64,000 nucleotides of DNA from a phage. The notes beneath the pieces are model-generated. The model made no database searches, was not told the origin of the DNA, and saw nothing but the letters and a program-made list of their open reading frames with translations. Location: NCBI GenBank assembly GCA_024449565.1, contig GCA_024449565.1_4810.1. One strand, given 5' to 3'. Made by a program: the position numbers and the translations under genes. Positions 6,659-11,453 of the stretch are shown here, in pieces (position 1 is the first letter of the stretch; each line of letters opens with the position of its first letter).

Positions 6659-7039
6659 ATGTCAAATAAAAATGATTCTGTGAGTCACACATATACTAAA
6701 GGCAGCGGCATTGCTTTTGGTTCCAGCATCAAAATTGACGCTCCACCTTGCTATTCTGATGGATTGGAAGTTGGCAACCGCGACTTAACATGGGTTTTAC
6801 GTCGCCAATCCGATTTAGAAGAGAAGCTGGAAAATATTGAGCGTTCTCTTGAAAGTCTTCGCGACCAGCTTTTTGGTTGTCCTGAAGATGAGTCAAAACC
6901 TGAATCATATGCAGCCAATCGCGGTTTGATTGATAATATGCTTGCTATTACCGCTCGATCAATTGGTAAAACTGTGTCCATTGAATCATTGATCAGCCAG
7001 ATTGCGGATGGCTTTGGTGATGCCCATAAGAGCGAATAG
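6659..7039 (+). CDS. hypothetical coiled-coil protein (126 aa)
   Basis: Start moved to ATG 6659 preceded by GAAGGT; the longer track ORF starts at 6593. Confidence 0.5.
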   Translation: MSNKNDSVSHTYTKGSGIAFGSSIKIDAPPCYSDGLEVGNRDLTWVLRRQSDLEEKLENIERSLESLRDQLFGCPEDESKPESYAANRGLIDNMLAITARSIGKTVSIESLISQIADGFGDAHKSE

Positions 7040-7069
7040 TGGGTGGATGTTGCTTTAACCGTGAATCGT

Positions 7070-7096
7070 GGGTCGCTTAGTGCGGCCCTTTATTTT
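7070..7096 (+). terminator. intrinsic terminator after the 6659-7039 gene
   Basis: gggtcgc/gcggccc stem (one G-U pair), loop ttagt, then tttattttg. Confidence 0.5.
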
Positions 7097-7098
7097 GC

Positions 7099-7174
7099 CT
7101 GCCGCGCAGGAGTGTACTGCCGCGCAGGAGTGTACTGCCGCGCAGGAGTGTACTGCCGCGCAGGAGTGTACTGC
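7099..7174. repeat. tandem repeat, 18-bp unit ctgccgcgcaggagtgta x4 plus partial fifth
   Basis: Four perfect head-to-tail copies at 7099-7170 followed by ctgc; each unit is a near-palindrome. Confidence 0.9.
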
Positions 7175-7551
7175 AAATTTCCTGTGGGTACAAAATAGTA
7201 CGGTACTGTCTAGGACTTTTTCTTTGAAAAGTTAGTGGACCAAATGTGTCGTATTTTGATTAGTGTACCGCAAATTCCATCAAGTAGCAAAACGCACCAA
7301 AAGACCCATGCCCTAAAAACCACACGAACGCAATAATCAATCGCCGTTACAGTTTCCAGCGTTACAATTAGAAAGCGAATGATTCGATGCATAATAATAT
7401 GAAGCATAATGATTCGAAAGCTAATGGTTGCGCGTAGGATGATATCGGGAGGGATTATTCGAGATGCGTGTAATTTCGCATGCGTACTATTTTCGGGCGA
7501 AGGGTCGGCATATTCTTCGTTTTAGCTCGGAACGAAGGGAAAGTTTTGCGC

Positions 7552-7628
7552 CTTTATAAAACAACGACTTACGCGACCCGCCTTAACGGTCCGATATAGG
7601 TGTCTATATAAAACAAGGACTTACGCGA
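7552..7628. repeat. two 25-bp direct repeats (ctttataaaacaacgacttacgcga / ctatataaaacaaggacttacgcga)
   Basis: Copies at about 7552-7576 and 7604-7628, 2 mismatches, inside a ~570-bp non-coding stretch. Confidence 0.7.
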
Positions 7629-7750
7629 TGTTCTCCATTTAACGTAATACCTGTTATGCGAACTAAGGCGCATCTCGACGAAGATTGTGCGACGACGAAG
7701 GGAAGGATAAAGGAGTTTTCGCGTAGGAGCTCATCGAGATAGGGACGAAG

Positions 7751-7772
7751 AAAAGCCGCGACTAAGCGCGGC
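7751..7772 (-). terminator. terminator-like hairpin downstream of the 7793-8083 minus-strand gene
   Basis: gccgcg/cgcggc 6-bp stem, loop actaag; T-run on the minus strand (aaaa on plus at 7751-7754). Confidence 0.4.
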
Positions 7773-7792
7773 CTATTAGTAACGGAAGGGTA

Positions 7793-8083
7793 TTATAAGG
7801 AGACGATTTTAAAGAAAGAGTAACGGCCTTCGCCTTCGGATACCGCGATATATTCGCCGCCGAACTCCGTAGCAAAATAAACCTTGCCTTCGATAGTAAC
7901 GCGGAAGGTAGAAATATCTTCCTCTTCGAGTTCCGTAAATTCGCTAAAATCGATAGGACTATGAAGCTCCTCGATAGTCGCATCTACGTTAAAGAGATAA
8001 ACGTTTTTAAGTTTTTCGCCAAATACGTTAGAGTTTTCGGAAGTTTCGACGCGAGCGGAACGGATAGCGGCCAAAGTAATCAT
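7793..8083 (-). CDS. small acidic protein, paralog family member 1 (96 aa)
   Basis: AGGAGA RBS; CpG-rich codon usage; aligns with the 8719-9003 product (IRxAxVE, VYxxNVDxTIE, C-terminal GxxYFxAxE). Confidence 0.6.
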   Translation of the reverse strand: MITLAAIRSARVETSENSNVFGEKLKNVYLFNVDATIEELHSPIDFSEFTELEEEDISTFRVTIEGKVYFATEFGGEYIAVSEGEGRYSFFKIVSL

Positions 8084-8190
8084 AATATTCTCCTAGTTAG
8101 TCGGGAGGGTAGCGACCTATTCGCTACCTCATCCCCTCTCGATATAAAACATTATAGTCTTAGTGTACGAAGAAGTAAAGCACTTTTTCG
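8084..8190 (-). promoter_or_regulatory. upstream control region with AGTGTACGAAGAAGTAAAG element
   Basis: 19-bp element at 8162-8180 recurs at 8560-8578 (direct) and 8621-8639 (inverted, 2-3 mismatches); ctcgata(t/c)aaa also shared with the 8494-8560 region. Confidence 0.4.
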
Positions 8191-8493
8191 TTATTCTGCG
8201 ATAAAATATTTATAAGCTTTATCGCCTTCTACGTCGATATACTCGACGATAATTAACGCTTCGCCGCGCGGCGTAACCGTCTCGATAAGGGTAACGGCTT
8301 CGTCGTCGGTCTTCGCGAAGCGGATTGCGCTACGTTCGGCGTACTTAATATCATCGAAGGAAAGGCCGACGAAAGCGACCGCGCGGACCTTAATAATGGT
8401 AGATTCTAGTTCCGCGTTAACGGCAGCGATAAGAGAGCGAACGGTTAAACGGTCTTCGTCGTAAGTAAGGATAGAAGAGATTAAAGTAGTCAT
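8191..8493 (-). CDS. small acidic protein, possible distant paralog (100 aa)
   Basis: Start moved to ATG at 8493 with GGAG RBS (MTTLISSIL...); the longer track ORF ends at 8550. Confidence 0.55.
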   Translation of the reverse strand: MTTLISSILTYDEDRLTVRSLIAAVNAELESTIIKVRAVAFVGLSFDDIKYAERSAIRFAKTDDEAVTLIETVTPRGEALIIVEYIDVEGDKAYKYFIAE

Positions 8494-8718
8494 AATAAAA
8501 CTCCCGATGCTAGTAGAAGGAAGGGCCATCACCCGTCTCGATACAAACAAGTATACGCGAGTGTACGAAGAAGTAAAGAAAAAAGATAAAATAATTTATC
8601 TCATTTTTATCGAAAAAGTGCTTTACTTTTTTCTACACTATATTATAATGTACTCATATCGGGACGGGATGAGTTAACGAATAGGTCGTTAACGCCCGTC
8701 GAGAACTAGGAGTTTAAA
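8494..8718. promoter_or_regulatory. divergent intergenic control region
   Basis: Lies between divergent starts 8493 (minus) and 8719 (plus); contains inverted pair of the AGTGTAC...GTAAAG element and a tattataat -10-like box. Confidence 0.45.
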
Positions 8719-9003
8719 ATGGCTATTCTTAACGTTTCTTCCATCCGTAACGCTATCGTCGAGAACTACGGCGTAAAACAAATTTTATCCGAAGTTTACG
8801 CCGCGAACGTAGACCAAACTATCGAGGCGGGTGGGGTAACGGTCGCCGAGGCTTTTAAACTTTACGCGGCGCTACCGGAATCGGACCGCGAAGCCTTCGA
8901 AGTAAACGTTAACGGATACTTCTTCGAAGCGGTCGAAATCGGTAACATCTTACTCGTTATGGGCGAAGAAGAATTTGATACCTTCTCCCTCGTCGAAGCG
9001 TAA
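8719..9003 (+). CDS. small acidic protein, paralog family member 2 (94 aa)
   Basis: AGGAG RBS; CpG-rich codon usage; homologous to the 7793-8083 product. Confidence 0.6.
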   Translation: MAILNVSSIRNAIVENYGVKQILSEVYAANVDQTIEAGGVTVAEAFKLYAALPESDREAFEVNVNGYFFEAVEIGNILLVMGEEEFDTFSLVEA

Positions 9004-9083
9004 GAGAGGATTTTTAGAGCGTCGTGCGCGGCGCTTTAATAAAATTCTTTCGCGCCTAGCGCCCTAACAAATAGGAGTTCATT

Positions 9084-9710
9084 ATGGTTAGCTTAAATCG
9101 TTTCTCGACTAGCGGCGACGTTATCGCAACTAAGACCGCCGACCTCGTTGCATTTTATAATGCAAATTCAGGTTCGAAGCCGATTAAAAAATTTGCGGAC
9201 CGCCGGACCGCCGAGACTCGCGTAATCGCGCTAATCGAGTCCTTAAACGCGCTCGATGAGCCGTCCAACGAATCGCCAATCCCCGACGCGAAGCCGCGCG
9301 AGGAAGTGTCCAGCGATGTAAAAACGCATAAGGCGCGTGCGGTCGTTAAAAAGGCAGAGCCGACGCAGGAAGAACTCGACGCGATGAGCGATGAAGAGTA
9401 TGAAGCCTTCGTTAAGAGCGGCTTAAACGATAGTGCAAATTGCGTAGTGCAAAATGGAACTCCTTCCCATCGCCGTTCGAATAGCGAAGGTATTGCAAAA
9501 AGTTGGGACAATAAGGAAGTGGCGCAAAAGCGTCTCACCCGTAACGGCGTTATGGTCGAGGGTGTAGGAGAGTTCAAATCGGTCCGCGCAGCTTTCGCCG
9601 CGCTGGGATTACCGGATAGCAAGCACATTCGCTTCCGTATGAAGCTTAAGGAAGCTGGGCGCTTGAACTTCGAGTTCGGCAACAAGTCCTTTACCTTCCA
9701 GATTATCTAA
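9084..9710 (+). CDS. hypothetical protein (208 aa)
   Basis: AGGAG RBS; CpG-rich codon usage; two internal copies of the TAGTGCAAA(T/A) motif. Confidence 0.6.
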   Translation: MVSLNRFSTSGDVIATKTADLVAFYNANSGSKPIKKFADRRTAETRVIALIESLNALDEPSNESPIPDAKPREEVSSDVKTHKARAVVKKAEPTQEELDAMSDEEYEAFVKSGLNDSANCVVQNGTPSHRRSNSEGIAKSWDNKEVAQKRLTRNGVMVEGVGEFKSVRAAFAALGLPDSKHIRFRMKLKEAGRLNFEFGNKSFTFQII

Positions 9711-9760
9711 TCGAATGGCGGCCCTTCGGGGTCGCTTTTCATAGTGCAAATTGGTGGCTT

Positions 9761-10024
9761 ATGAATACGCTTATTCTCATCGCTACGTTGTCCATCGGAA
9801 GTGGTCGCACCTTATCCCTTTATGACCATAGTGCAAATTGCGCCTATCCTACGCGCGTTGCGGCGATAGTTAATAGTGCAAATAAGATGCTATTCGAGAC
9901 TTGCTGGAGGGTCGATAACGAGAAAGGTCGGGTAGTCTTAGGCTATAGTGCAAATCTGCTGGTGGAGTCGTTCGATTGGACGGTTGAAGGTCGTAAATTG
10001 TTACGTAAAGTGACTAAAAGATGA
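9761..10024 (+). CDS. questionable ORF (87 aa) carrying three in-frame motif copies
   Basis: Weak RBS; three in-frame AGT-GCA-AAT (Ser-Ala-Asn) copies of the motif; may be non-coding. Confidence 0.3.
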   Translation: MNTLILIATLSIGSGRTLSLYDHSANCAYPTRVAAIVNSANKMLFETCWRVDNEKGRVVLGYSANLLVESFDWTVEGRKLLRKVTKR

Positions 10025-10085
10025 CTTATAATAATACACTTTCTAACGCGTTTATGGTTACAACCTTCCCCGTCGTATTACCGAT

Positions 10086-10125
10086 GGCCCTAGAAGTGGA
10101 GAAAATGTGTTCTAGGGCCGTTTTA
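10086..10125 (+). terminator. terminator-like hairpin (10-bp perfect stem) between convergent genes
   Basis: ggccctagaa ... ttctagggcc with 14-nt loop, then gtttta; immediately followed by a motif copy. Confidence 0.45.
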
Positions 10126-10138
10126 TAGTGCAAATTGG

Positions 10139-10612
10139 CTAGTGGCGGGAGAATTGCTCTCCTTCTTTGGCCGCCTCTCCAAAATCCTTGTAGAAATCAT
10201 CCATGGAACGGCCCATTTTACTATTGCCATTTTCATCAATCATCGTGATGCCGTAGATGATATTCAGTTCACGAATGGCATTAAGTTTGGCTGATGCCGC
10301 GACTTCTGGATCACGCACAAGCTTCACTAGATTGTGGATGGAACTCTTTACGCTCCACAATTCCTTCAATGGCATCTCTTCCATACGCTTTTTGTAGCGC
10401 ATCTTGTAGTACGGATTGCGCTGAGTGCACAGGATTCGCTGGCCAGTGTAGTTATCGGTCGCAACCTCCATGCCAAATACTAGTGCAAAAGCTGCGCGCA
10501 TGTCATGGCCTTGAATAACAAGGTCAATGAACTCATCGAATAATGCCTGATTATGCTCTGCAAATCGCGGGTCTTCAAAGTCTTCAGGCATTGCTACATA
10601 ATCTTGACTCAT
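10139..10612 (-). CDS. hypothetical acidic protein (157 aa)
   Basis: Start moved to internal ATG at 10612 (MSQDYVAMPEDFED...); two motif copies abut the start on the other strand. Normal (non-island) composition. Confidence 0.5.
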   Translation of the reverse strand: MSQDYVAMPEDFEDPRFAEHNQALFDEFIDLVIQGHDMRAAFALVFGMEVATDNYTGQRILCTQRNPYYKMRYKKRMEEMPLKELWSVKSSIHNLVKLVRDPEVAASAKLNAIRELNIIYGITMIDENGNSKMGRSMDDFYKDFGEAAKEGEQFSRH

Positions 10613-10693
10613 AGTGCAAATCCCATAGTGCAAATTAATAGTGTGAATTATACAATGAATGAACATTATATTCAAGTGCAGATTGATGTTCAA

Positions 10694-11453
10694 ATTGGCT
10701 GTAAACGTACATAAATCATAGTGCTAAATGAATAGCGGACCGTGATGCGTGGTGTACTGTTTGATACGTATAAAAGAAATCCATCCCTTTCGCCGCTTGC
10801 TATGCAAATCAATGACTTAGCCGCTGCTGGCTGGTTGAAGCGTATCATGACGTATCATCCGTATTGCCGCAAGTCTTTGTTTTTACTTATATCTTACGGA
10901 TAATACGTATAAATATAAGTTCAGTATAAGTATGAGGATGTAGAAAAAAATTAATTTAAATTAATTCAAAATGGAGTTAATTGTTTTTTTCAAAGTTGTA
11001 TAAAGTATAGCGGCGACGCGTATCATCCGTATCATCCGTAAGATGTACCATTGAACCCAGTCGCGGCGCACCATAGAAGTGTGTGGAGTGAACTACGGAT
11101 AGGTCCAAATCTTACGTCATTATACGTTTAAATTCTATGCGTAAGGTTAGCCAGCTAACTATATCTCCTTTTTAATTTCAAGCGGCAATCCCAGAGACGG
11201 CGCACCATGTACACAAACACACCACGGTACACGCTCCAATTCCTAGTGATTTCCTCTCCAATCCCACAACACCACAGTACAATAATCTTCCAAAACCGCA
11301 CACATATTCAAGACGCAAAATTCACGTCACAATCCTCACTACCAACGACACTCTAATAGATTTACACAAATCAATCGATTTATCCGATAATAAAGACTCA
11401 CATTCCACAGGCAAATAAAAAGGGCCAATCGGCCCTCTTAACATTAATCATAA
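10694..11453. other. 760-bp non-coding region with iteron-like repeats, AT-rich dyad and strand-skewed CA-rich tract
   Basis: No ORF of 60 aa or more on either strand; CGTATCATCCGTA-type repeats at 10841-10870 and 11018-11040; AT-rich tract 10943-10991; CCCAGnnnCGGCGCACCAT at 11056-11074 and 11189-11207; G-poor tract about 11208-11400. Confidence 0.5.
11408..11437 (-). terminator. intrinsic terminator downstream of the 11454-11906 gene
   Basis: gggcc/ggccc stem with T-run on the minus strand (ctttttatttgcctg). Confidence 0.5.

Follow-up and report, generated by a model that had tools for sequence, protein, structure and literature searches.

Three small genes, here called P1, P2 and P3, each make up a self-contained cassette for expression within the direct terminal repeat (DTR, ~3.7 kb) of a Wifcevirus genome, as read from their sequence layout. 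We propose that they encode immediate-early accessory effectors, an explanation that, taken as a whole, we consider evenly balanced between right and wrong. Each cassette comprises an AT-rich upstream region, its own copy of a promoter, and the coding sequence of an acidic soluble protein of ~95–100 amino acids. The window, as the term is used throughout, is the whole stretch of 64,000 nucleotides of phage DNA that was analysed. Its nucleotide matches were Wifcevirus phages, at 90–96% identity, and we assign it on this basis to Wifcevirus, whose members are ~68-kb myoviruses of E. coli.

P1, P2 and P3 are genes under purifying selection

P1 (7793–8083, minus strand) encodes a protein of 96 amino acids (pI 4.40, net charge −10), P2 (8191–8493, minus strand) one of 100 amino acids (pI 4.55, net charge −7), and P3 (8719–9003, plus strand) one of 94 amino acids (pI 4.05, net charge −12). 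The coordinates and strands agree with those of a preliminary description of this DNA. We take the ATG at 8493 as the correct start of P2 because a longer form, starting from a TTG (8550), would begin within the −10 box of the P2 promoter. All three products had also been described as strongly acidic; this is clearly so for P1 and P3, but P2 is just moderately acidic. When the 98 greedy open reading frames (ORFs) of the window were ranked by net charge per residue, P3 came first, as the most acidic product of the window, and P1 fourth; P2 came 16th, a rank that applies to its longer greedy ORF of 112 aa and not to the 100-aa form. The net charge per residue of the three proteins is modest (0.07–0.13). 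The relatives that we found (see below) are all acidic, with net charges of −11, −19 and −15, and acidity is retained while the sequence falls to ~30% identity.

Close orthologues of P1–P3 have kept their lengths and gave dN/dS values of about 0.05–0.3. For P1, the ratio was 0.03–0.27 inside each allele class and about 0.4–0.5 across allele classes; for P2, it was 0–0.6 over all pairs, mostly 0.1–0.4; and for P3, it was 0–0.1. By this measure, P1, P2 and P3 are real genes under purifying selection. The same result effectively refutes the notion that the repeat region is non-coding and that its ORFs are due to chance or have no function, to which the lack of a functional annotation in all 29 phage records might otherwise lend some colour. 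Lengths are kept, the promoter, the Shine-Dalgarno sequence and the leader are conserved for each gene, and homologues of P1 and P2 are still adjacent on a distant metagenomic contig (L003) despite the low identity of the neighbouring proteins (37–51%). We therefore give the chance-ORF explanation next to no credence.

P1 and P3 are paralogues, and P2 is set apart by sequence

BLASTP aligned P1 with P3 at 32% identity across 98 columns (E = 2e-7), and the profiles of their orthologues matched in hhalign (E = 6.9e-7, probability 92%). The Smith-Waterman score of the pair was 87, vs 29 ± 5.6 for 1000 shuffles (z = 10.4). Moreover, HMMs of P1 and P3, searched against the 768 six-frame ORFs of the window, each retrieved the other alone (E = 3e-6 and 7e-7). 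Collectively, these comparisons bear out the earlier observation that the two proteins align lengthwise, and they identify P1 and P3 as true paralogues.

The preliminary description had gone further, counting P2 as the third member of a paralogous family and quoting for it a C-terminal pattern like that of P1 and P3. The P1–P3 relationship stands, but P2 has no detectable sequence relationship to either protein, and the quoted pattern is no better than chance. BLASTP returned no alignment of P2 with P1 or P3 at E ≤ 100. In hhalign, the comparisons gave E values of 0.33, 0.43 and 0.88, even with a 27–35% identical homologue of each family added. Local shuffle z scores lay between −1.1 and 1.3, and the P2 HMM and the P1/P3 HMMs did not retrieve each other among the 768 six-frame ORFs. 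By sequence, P2 thus lies outside the P1/P3 family, and what is common to all three is the promoter, the neighbourhood, the size and the charge.

It is conceivable, although we think it rather doubtful, that P2 is a paralogue that has diverged past sequence recognition, so that the family would have three members of one fold, or four with P3′, an alternative ORF found at the P3 position (see below). P2 has a promoter and transcript start homologous with theirs, its length and charge are similar to those of P1 and P3, and global alignment of P2 with two P1 alleles gave z = 2.4–3.2. That very diverged alleles exist at the locus follows from the weak similarity of P3′ to P3 (global z = 4.2); the first 31 amino acids of P3′ match the P1/P3 profile (E = 1.3e-3). 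In AlphaFold models, the secondary-structure elements of P1 and P2 are almost in register. Against such a distant kinship, BLASTP and profile–profile comparison found nothing, and the global z scores (1.6–3.2 for P2 vs P1 or P3) are not robust, vanishing with the L003 homologues. Furthermore, unrelated sequences can follow the promoter, as gp004 does behind the P3 promoter in phage ECML-117. Since the coding sequence behind one and the same promoter and leader may be P3, P3′ or missing, the shared promoter is no evidence of coding-sequence homology.

The models of both P1 and P2 are of low confidence (AlphaFold2 pLDDT of 62 and 55, respectively). The P1 model has helices at residues 4–10 and 46–49, a strand at 35–40 and, within 57–95, four further strands. 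The P2 model has helices at 2–9, 18–29 and 46–54, a strand at 36–37 and, within 58–99, again four strands. These predictions hint that the two topologies are alike. Residues 12–33 are the most conserved segment of P1, yet the least confident in its model. A Foldseek search of BFVD with P1 found the orthologue of phage WFH alone, and the same search with P2 found nothing; sequence and profile searches of the PDB gave no match.

Pfam and PHROG scans covered P1, P2, P3 and six neighbours, and for P1–P3 they gave nothing below E = 0.05. Pfam gave nothing below E = 0.1 for P3′, and the P2-like protein of L003 was likewise without a match. The preliminary description had set against its own reading a clear kinship with structural or metabolic proteins; such homology was looked for and not found for P1, P2 or P3. 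Indexed homologue searches with the three proteins returned Wifcevirus sequences only. A joint P1+P3 profile HMM, run against 1.84 billion representatives, added one true relative, P0040 (E = 3e-11), itself without a Pfam match. Three further hits of that search, P0041–P0043 (E = 1e-7 to 1e-9), were rejected as relatives. They are Big_13 proteins whose scores are sums of 5–12 weak repeats, and in P0043 each repeat scores just 7–9 bits, on the motif VxVTVNGxxYxxT; P1 and P3 themselves have no match to Big_13 (PF19077) and are not members of it. Scans of IMG/VR, metagenome and GTDB collections with proteins or profiles revealed no further lineage. On L003, a 27%-identical P2 homologue adjoins the P1 homologue, and the neighbouring proteins are just 27–51% identical to their Wifcevirus counterparts. 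As far as these searches reach, the P1/P3 and P2 families are orphans confined to Wifcevirus and one metagenomic contig.

The cassettes lie in the terminal repeat behind homologous promoters

The DTR spans 7219–10972 of the window (a repeat to which no strand applies) and contains the whole of P1, P2 and P3. In the WFC record, the first 3784 bases equal the last 3784 at 100% identity and map to ~10972–7219 of the window. The DTR of phage Mansfield, annotated via PhageTerm, is 3673 bp long, equivalent to ~7299–10971. Consistent with these records, Korf et al. described a terminal repeat of ~3.7 kb (PMC6563267). Virion DNA carries the stretch with P1–P3 at each genome end. The window contains no tRNAs, and an Rfam scan of 6900–9200 gave no match.

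A consensus scan revealed a common sigma70-type promoter, TTTACT(T/C)TT..ACACT followed after ~4 nt by TATAAT or TATACT. It lies at 8151–8179 (minus strand) for P1 (TTTACT, 17 nt, TATAAT; consensus match 10/12), at 8550–8577 (minus strand) for P2 (TTTACT, 16 nt, TATACT), and at 8622–8649 (plus strand) for P3 (TTTACT, 16 nt, TATAAT). The P1 and P2 promoters have the 17-mer TTTACTTCTTCGTACAC in common, and the P3 promoter carries a copy with two mismatches. All three cassettes have a conserved putative transcript start, (A/G)TATCG(A/G)GA, which places the predicted starts near 8143 (minus strand), 8543 (minus strand) and 8656 (plus strand), and all have a strong Shine-Dalgarno sequence. The P2 and P3 promoters are divergent, and the AT-rich spacer between them holds the palindrome GATAAAATAATTTATC (8585–8600). 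On L003, the 17-mer, TATACT and ATATCGA are kept exactly 5′ of the P1 homologue, the protein being just 33–36% identical. An exact search for the 17-mer in IMG/VR gave, beyond Wifcevirus, matches that had no −10 box and were taken as chance. The promoters of P1, P2 and P3 are homologous and, judged by consensus match, of the host sigma70 type. We also considered GTGCTTTA, found 5′ of P1 and P3, as a T4 MotA box, with the MotA consensus as the basis for judging its spacing. This reading was rejected, as neither the P2 copy nor that of L003 contains TGC, and the element is too far from the −10 box.

The 5′ leader of P1 (8084–8145, minus strand) begins with the conserved ATATCGAGA, contains a predicted stem-loop (8103–8135), and leaves the Shine-Dalgarno sequence AGGAG free. 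The inner 8-bp stem (8108–8128) carries the loop AUAGG (fold −21.3 kcal/mol, z = −2.3). The leader of P3 (8656–8718, plus strand) begins with ATATCGGGA and has a stem-loop at 8663–8700, followed by AGGAG; its inner stem (8673–8693) carries an AUAGG loop identical to that of P1 (fold −19.9 kcal/mol, z = −2.0). Exact copies of the 11-mer CGAATAGGTCG occur in these two leaders only. Between the P1 and P3 stems there are two compensatory pairs (GC to UA and GC to AU), and the loop is invariant. The leader of ECML-117 has a G-U intermediate in the stem, in keeping with base pairing at the level of RNA and not of DNA. The P2 leader begins with GTATCGAGACGGG and lacks the inner hairpin of the P1 and P3 leaders.

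Downstream of P1, 19 nt past its stop codon, lies a terminator-like hairpin with a T-run (7753–7774, minus strand), made of an 8-bp stem with six GC pairs and then TTCTTCGTCC; the Mansfield and WFC records have a terminator annotated at the matching site. Between the gene in the P3 slot and gp004 (9084–9710, plus strand), no terminator was found by scanning, and none is annotated there in WFC. The conserved 208-aa product of gp004 matches PHROG 4730, which has no function assigned, and shares 50% identity with the homologue on L003. In ECML-117, the P3 promoter and leader are joined straight to gp004. From this arrangement, P3 and gp004 probably share one transcript.

The promoter consensus matches make it fairly probable that P1–P3 are expressed immediate-early. 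Two observations weigh against this timing: the promoter matches are 9–10/12, with comparable matches scattered across the genome, and the DTR also encodes a predicted small terminase subunit, so that the repeat is not purely an early module. A literature search found no Wifcevirus transcriptome.

The P3 slot and the P1 alleles vary across Wifcevirus

P1 is present in at least 28 of the 29 GenBank Wifcevirus records and P2 in all 29. P3, by contrast with these core genes, is accessory (12/29). Its slot is polymorphic in the genus and holds P3, P3′ (an alternative acidic ORF; 11/29), or nothing. WFC has P3′ behind the same promoter and leader as P3, and the slot is empty in ECML-117 and probably also in vB_Eco4M-7. 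The segment that is replaced between P3 and P3′ coincides with the coding sequence (8727–8993 of the window). Repeated Shine-Dalgarno-plus-start sequences, TAGGAGTT(T/C)A..ATGG, lie on both sides of the slot and could mediate the gain and loss of the slot gene.

The N-terminal 38 amino acids of P1 are almost invariant across the genus, and the C-terminal 58 form diverged alleles. Nucleotide identity between alleles is 87–90% over codons 1–38 and 57–60% over codons 39–96, and the C-terminal segment sits inside flanks that are ~90% identical. The P1 alleles are mosaic by this comparison. Together with the polymorphism of the P3 slot, this mosaicism is circumstantial evidence of accessory, arms-race-like behaviour.

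Defence resistance and the possible functions of P1–P3

Wifcevirus isolates of the BASEL collection are insensitive to every defence system tested, restriction-modification (RM) included, bar EcoP1_I: they resist type I, type II and one type III system, no mechanism that protects their genomes is known, and their RM insensitivity is without an explanation (PMC11990801). Of the four BASEL isolates, Bas99 and Bas100 carry P3, and Bas98 and Bas101 carry P3′; the resistance profile is the same with either, hence the P3/P3′ polymorphism explains no known phenotype. Avoidance of restriction sites was rejected as the cause of the RM insensitivity, since EcoRI, EcoRV and EcoKI sites occur in the window, where GATC alone is strongly depleted.

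The RM insensitivity would be explained if P1, P3 and perhaps P2 were DNA-mimic anti-restriction proteins of the Ocr/ArdA type, filling the DNA-binding groove of restriction enzymes. Like those mimics, P1–P3 are small, acidic and probably early proteins of a restriction-resistant phage; their genes lie in DNA found at both genome ends, and the genome does contain restriction sites. We nevertheless consider DNA mimicry improbable. Neither Pfam nor PHROGs relates P1–P3 to Ocr, to ArdA or to another anti-restriction family, and they have no structural match. Their net charge is just −7 to −12 over about 95–100 residues, and the charge density of classical mimics such as Ocr is well above this. 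The predicted fold, a mixed alpha/beta arrangement of a short helix and a four-stranded beta-meander, comes from low-confidence models and offers no demonstrable elongated, DNA-like acidic surface. Moreover, the targets of known DNA mimics are type I systems and BREX, not type II enzymes, whereas the BASEL isolates resist type I, type II and one type III system and yet stay sensitive to EcoP1_I. A wider proposal sees in P1, P2, P3 and P3′ the genome protection that is missing for Wifcevirus; together they would be structurally novel immediate-early inhibitors of type I, type II and some type III systems and of other defences; the C-terminal sheet of P1 and the P3 slot would then tune which host defences are blocked. 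We regard this as a long shot.

P1–P3 might also be host-takeover or regulatory factors, acting for example on RNA polymerase, nucleoid proteins or replication, and aiding the very short latent period reported for the genus. Small early proteins that bind RNA polymerase are known, among them T4 AsiA and T7 Gp2, the latter acidic. The DTR location and the promoters, as architectural evidence of early expression, speak for this role as much as for any other early one, and the core status of P1 and P2 is more in line with a role essential to development than with an accessory role. In addition, the BASEL paper cites a report of a cycle of 3–5 min for two Wifcevirus isolates (PMC11990801). Similarity to any such protein was absent from Pfam, PHROG, structure and PDB searches, and mosaic P1 alleles and the presence or absence of P3 would sooner be expected of accessory genes in an arms race. 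On balance, we hold a host-takeover role to be possible but less than likely.

Discussion

We favour the explanation that P1–P3 are immediate-early accessory effectors of the terminal repeat. P1 and P3 arose by duplication of a complete cassette (promoter, leader and coding sequence), and P2 is a different protein behind the same type of promoter. Host RNA polymerase would read the cassettes at once on DNA entry; with a copy at both genome ends, they would be present in whichever end goes in first, and the repeat would double their dosage. The proteins may then act stoichiometrically, as anti-defence or host-takeover effectors that bind host proteins and so neutralise them. In P1 and P3, the common functional core would be the conserved N-terminal half, and the exchangeable C-terminal beta-meander would be the variable part, possibly setting specificity.

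The steps of this scheme differ in strength. That P1–P3 inhibit host proteins seems to us a little short of an even chance. An anti-defence role specifically is rather unlikely; circumstantial support comes from the terminal-repeat site with host-type promoters, the polymorphic gene content and the mosaic alleles. Two findings count against the scheme as a whole: no homology or fold match in Pfam, PHROG, PDB or BFVD points P1–P3 to a function, and ECML-117-type phages manage without a gene in the P3 slot.

Our results narrow the candidates for the defence resistance of Wifcevirus to three or four proteins of ~95 amino acids that are encoded in the terminal repeat behind their own promoters. 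This P1/P2/P3/P3′ set is compact and easy to manipulate, and it varies in nature both in presence or absence and in allele. Four of the characterised phages belong to the public BASEL collection, so the question is directly testable. The promoter-and-leader cassette may also serve as a strong early expression element. Should P1–P3 be ordinary host-takeover factors, the finding would be a routine one, lengthening the list of early phage genes that lack characterisation.

Several known systems invite comparison. The pre-early genes of T5 lie in a terminal repeat, are transcribed from the first-entering DNA by host RNA polymerase, and are linked to host shut-off and restriction insensitivity. As in T5, the Wifcevirus cassettes are small genes, mostly without an assigned function, in a long direct terminal repeat, and have host-type promoters by consensus. 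Unlike in T5, where the repeat is about 10 kb long, that of Wifcevirus measures 3.7 kb; none of the T5 proteins resembles P1–P3 in sequence, and two-step DNA transfer is not known for Wifcevirus. Slots for morons or anti-defence islands share with the P3 slot a fixed site that follows a conserved promoter and is occupied here by P3, P3′ or neither; the Wifcevirus slot differs in taking a single gene and in holding no known anti-defence gene. The host-takeover module of SPO1 has many short genes in a terminal redundancy, with their own strong host-sigma promoters and strong ribosome-binding sites. The layout of the Wifcevirus cassettes fits the same pattern, although the host and the phage lineage are different, the cassettes number just three or four, and there is no homology. 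With their DTR location, a host-sigma promoter of their own (judged by consensus, not by activity) and a strong ribosome-binding site, the P1–P3 cassettes resemble the modules of T5 and SPO1 in architecture, the likeness being one of layout and not that of a homology family.

P1 and P3 are paralogs, and P2 is not detectably related to them

The three small open reading frames, P1 (7793–8083, minus strand, 96 aa), P2 (8191–8493, minus strand, 100 aa), and P3 (8719–9003, plus strand, 94 aa), are present as the preliminary description had placed them. It had also proposed that P1 and P3 align along their length, and here homology was clear: BLASTP gave 32% identity (E = 2e-7), profile-profile comparison gave E = 6.9e-7, the Smith-Waterman score lay 10 standard deviations over shuffles, and an HMM of either family retrieved the other alone from the 768 six-frame ORFs of the window. 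P2 had been counted as a third paralog, with a shared C-terminal pattern. However, P2 had no BLASTP alignment to P1 or P3 at E ≤ 100, hhalign returned only E = 0.33–0.88, even with a ~30%-identical homolog added to each profile, and local shuffle z-scores were –1.1 to 1.3, hence the C-terminal pattern is no better than chance. Paralogy therefore holds for two of the three proteins, and P2 is not detectably related to them. Similarly, strong acidity applies to P1 and P3, both of which rank within the window's top four products for acidity, but P2 is only moderately acidic. Judging from these alignments, the locus is best described as a two-member paralog family plus an unrelated neighbor.

All three ORFs are genes. 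Orthologs from 11–14 loci have identical lengths, and the small acidic proteins of all three cassettes are under purifying selection (pairwise dN/dS 0.03–0.27 between P1 sequences of one allele class, mostly 0.1–0.4 between P2 sequences, and 0–0.1 between P3 sequences). AlphaFold2 models were poor (pLDDT 62 for P1 and 55 for P2); both place short N-terminal helices before a four-stranded antiparallel meander. Since these elements are nearly in register, a fold common to P1 and P2 is possible in the models. Model confidence was lowest at the best-conserved part of P1/P3 (residues ~12–33), which may fold only upon binding a partner. Foldseek against BFVD found only the ortholog of phage WFH, and sequence and profile searches of the PDB were empty.

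Indexed homolog searches returned Wifcevirus sequences only. When the P1+P3 profile was run in an exhaustive HMM search, a single further member, true but distant, came to light: P0040 (103 aa, E = 3e-11), encoded on a 23-kb metagenomic contig, L003. This contig is syntenic with the window: homologs of the small terminase, an 87-aa protein, and the 208-aa protein (37–51% identity) are followed by the P1 homolog (33–36% identical) and, adjoining it, a P2 homolog (125 aa, 27% identical, E = 4e-7). The two homologs exceed the window proteins in acidity (net charges –11 and –19). The same search also hit three Big_13 Ig-like repeat proteins, which are not regarded as homologs; in P0043, the one checked, the score was the sum of 7–9-bit per-repeat matches to a beta-hairpin motif. 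IMG/VR, metagenomes, and GTDB genomes were scanned as well and yielded no new lineage. We also noted a Wifcevirus-type P1 (64% identical) on a 590-bp contig of a Xanthomonas pisi assembly (NZ_JPLE01000250.1), most likely a contamination of that assembly.

Promoters and 5′ leaders

A separate promoter-like site precedes each gene, TTTACT followed after 16–17 nt by TATAAT or TATACT, with AT-rich DNA upstream and a strong Shine-Dalgarno sequence downstream; a good intrinsic terminator lies 3′ of P1. Homology among the three sites starts at the –35 box, continues across the spacer (TTTACTTCTTCGTACAC), and reaches the first transcribed bases (ATATCGAGA); the promoter 17-mer does not occur again in the window. 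The exact 17-mer, with TATACT and ATATCGA, is also found upstream of the P1 homolog at L003:5954–5990 (TTTACTTCTTCGTACACT..TATACT..ATATCGA). Given that the neighboring proteins are only 27–51% identical, the promoter is far more conserved than the proteins, and the constraint on its spacer exceeds the need of a generic sigma70 promoter. The AT-rich spacer separating the divergent P2 and P3 promoters contains a palindrome (GATAAAATAATTTATC, 8585–8600), which could be an operator or merely UP-element-like DNA.

The leaders of P1 (8103–8135, minus strand) and P3 (8663–8700, plus strand) are each predicted to form a stem-loop (~ –20 kcal/mol) in which the Shine-Dalgarno sequence stays unpaired. 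The two leaders have an identical loop with identical closing pairs (CGAAUAGGUCG), and they differ in two of eight inner-stem pairs, each altered in both partners (G-C to U-A and G-C to A-U); the leader of phage ECML-117 has a G-U intermediate. This covariation, of two events only, is suggestive but not proof. It does indicate that promoter, leader, and coding sequence were duplicated as one unit to give P1 and P3, with the RNA hairpin maintained ever since. The stem-loop had no match in Rfam; it may be an mRNA stabilizer or a regulator binding site.

The genes lie in the direct terminal repeat

Window 7000–10000 matched 29 phage records at 90–96% identity, all of them Wifcevirus myoviruses that infect Escherichia or Shigella and have ~68-kb genomes; none of the 29 carries a function annotation for P1, P2, or P3. 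The WFC record opens with 3784 bases that recur unchanged at its far end, and these map to window ~7219–10972. In Mansfield, a direct terminal repeat of 3673 bp is annotated there on the basis of PhageTerm, consistent with the ~3.7 kb of the original description (PMC6563267). The repeat spans P1, P2, and P3, hence virion DNA carries each gene twice, one copy per end. It also includes a predicted small terminase subunit gene (10139–10612, minus strand; Mansfield annotation by HHpred), and so is not purely an early module.

Just beyond the left repeat boundary, an 18-bp unit (CTGCCGCGCAGGAGTGTA) is repeated perfectly in tandem (4.2 copies, 7099–7174), a source of spurious repetitive ORFs. At the repeat edge itself, ~570 bp (~7220–7790) are poor in ORFs and contain 15-bp repeats at 7378–7418; L003 has a comparable non-coding region at the equivalent place (7170–7700). 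Packaging or replication signals could reside here. GATC is strongly depleted in the window (104 sites versus ~240 expected from shuffles), with a single site in the 3.75-kb repeat (7219–10972), and CAGCAG is over-represented (61 versus ~25). Sites for EcoRI, EcoRV, and EcoKI occur about as often as expected or about half as often.

Allele replacement and gene gain or loss

All 29 GenBank records contain P2, and at least 28 of them contain P1. Residues 1–38 of P1 are nearly invariant (87–90% nucleotide identity between allele classes, with flanks at ~90%), whereas codons 39–96 (58 codons, 7793–7966) fall to 57–60%, with dN and dS both high. Divergence bounded by conserved flanks means that this segment was replaced and that the alleles are mosaic.

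P3 is accessory (12 of 29 records). Eleven others, including WFC, WFH, Bas98, and Bas101, instead carry P3′, an acidic ORF of 104 aa (net charge –15) that looks unrelated and sits behind the same promoter and leader; in WFC the replaced segment corresponds to window 8727–8993, nearly exactly the P3 coding sequence. The remaining six have neither, and in ECML-117, the one record in which the empty slot was verified, promoter and leader run straight into the beginning of the 208-aa gene. The slot variants map to window 8719–9003 (P3), L022:7067–7381 (minus strand), and L018:4282–4340, the latter two on other loci compared. P3′ may be an extremely diverged P3 allele, although the similarity is marginal (global shuffle z = 4.2; N-terminal hhalign E = 1.3e-3). 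Similar Shine-Dalgarno-plus-start sequences, TAGGAGTT(T/C)A..ATGG, border the slot and could mediate its gain or loss. Since the same promoter drives different coding sequences, the homologous promoter of P2 is no evidence of paralogy.

Possible function

The terminal repeat holds three self-contained cassettes, each with strong translation signals and a conserved, predicted promoter of host type, and they show accessory-gene dynamics. Host RNA polymerase would transcribe them right after DNA entry, and their products would act by binding host proteins. We consider it somewhat probable that they are immediate-early effectors of some kind. A role in anti-defense is supported indirectly by the BASEL study, whose Wifcevirus isolates were insensitive to every defense system tested, restriction-modification included, except EcoP1_I, with no known means of genome protection (PMC11990801); the window does have EcoRI, EcoRV, and EcoKI sites. 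Reasons for caution are that the repeat also holds the predicted small terminase gene, that the charge density of P1–P3 is modest, and that P3-bearing and P3′-bearing isolates behave alike. We regard an anti-defense role as rather unlikely, and DNA mimicry as improbable.

The locus is a conserved, early-looking module without known homologs, and its main value is that it offers a few candidates, open to direct testing, for a published phenotype that lacks an explanation. The finding is real but modest, and of a known kind, the small acidic genes that virulent phages carry in their terminal repeats. The pre-early genes of T5 and the host-takeover module of SPO1 have the same layout as the Wifcevirus cassettes, an analogy of architecture rather than homology.
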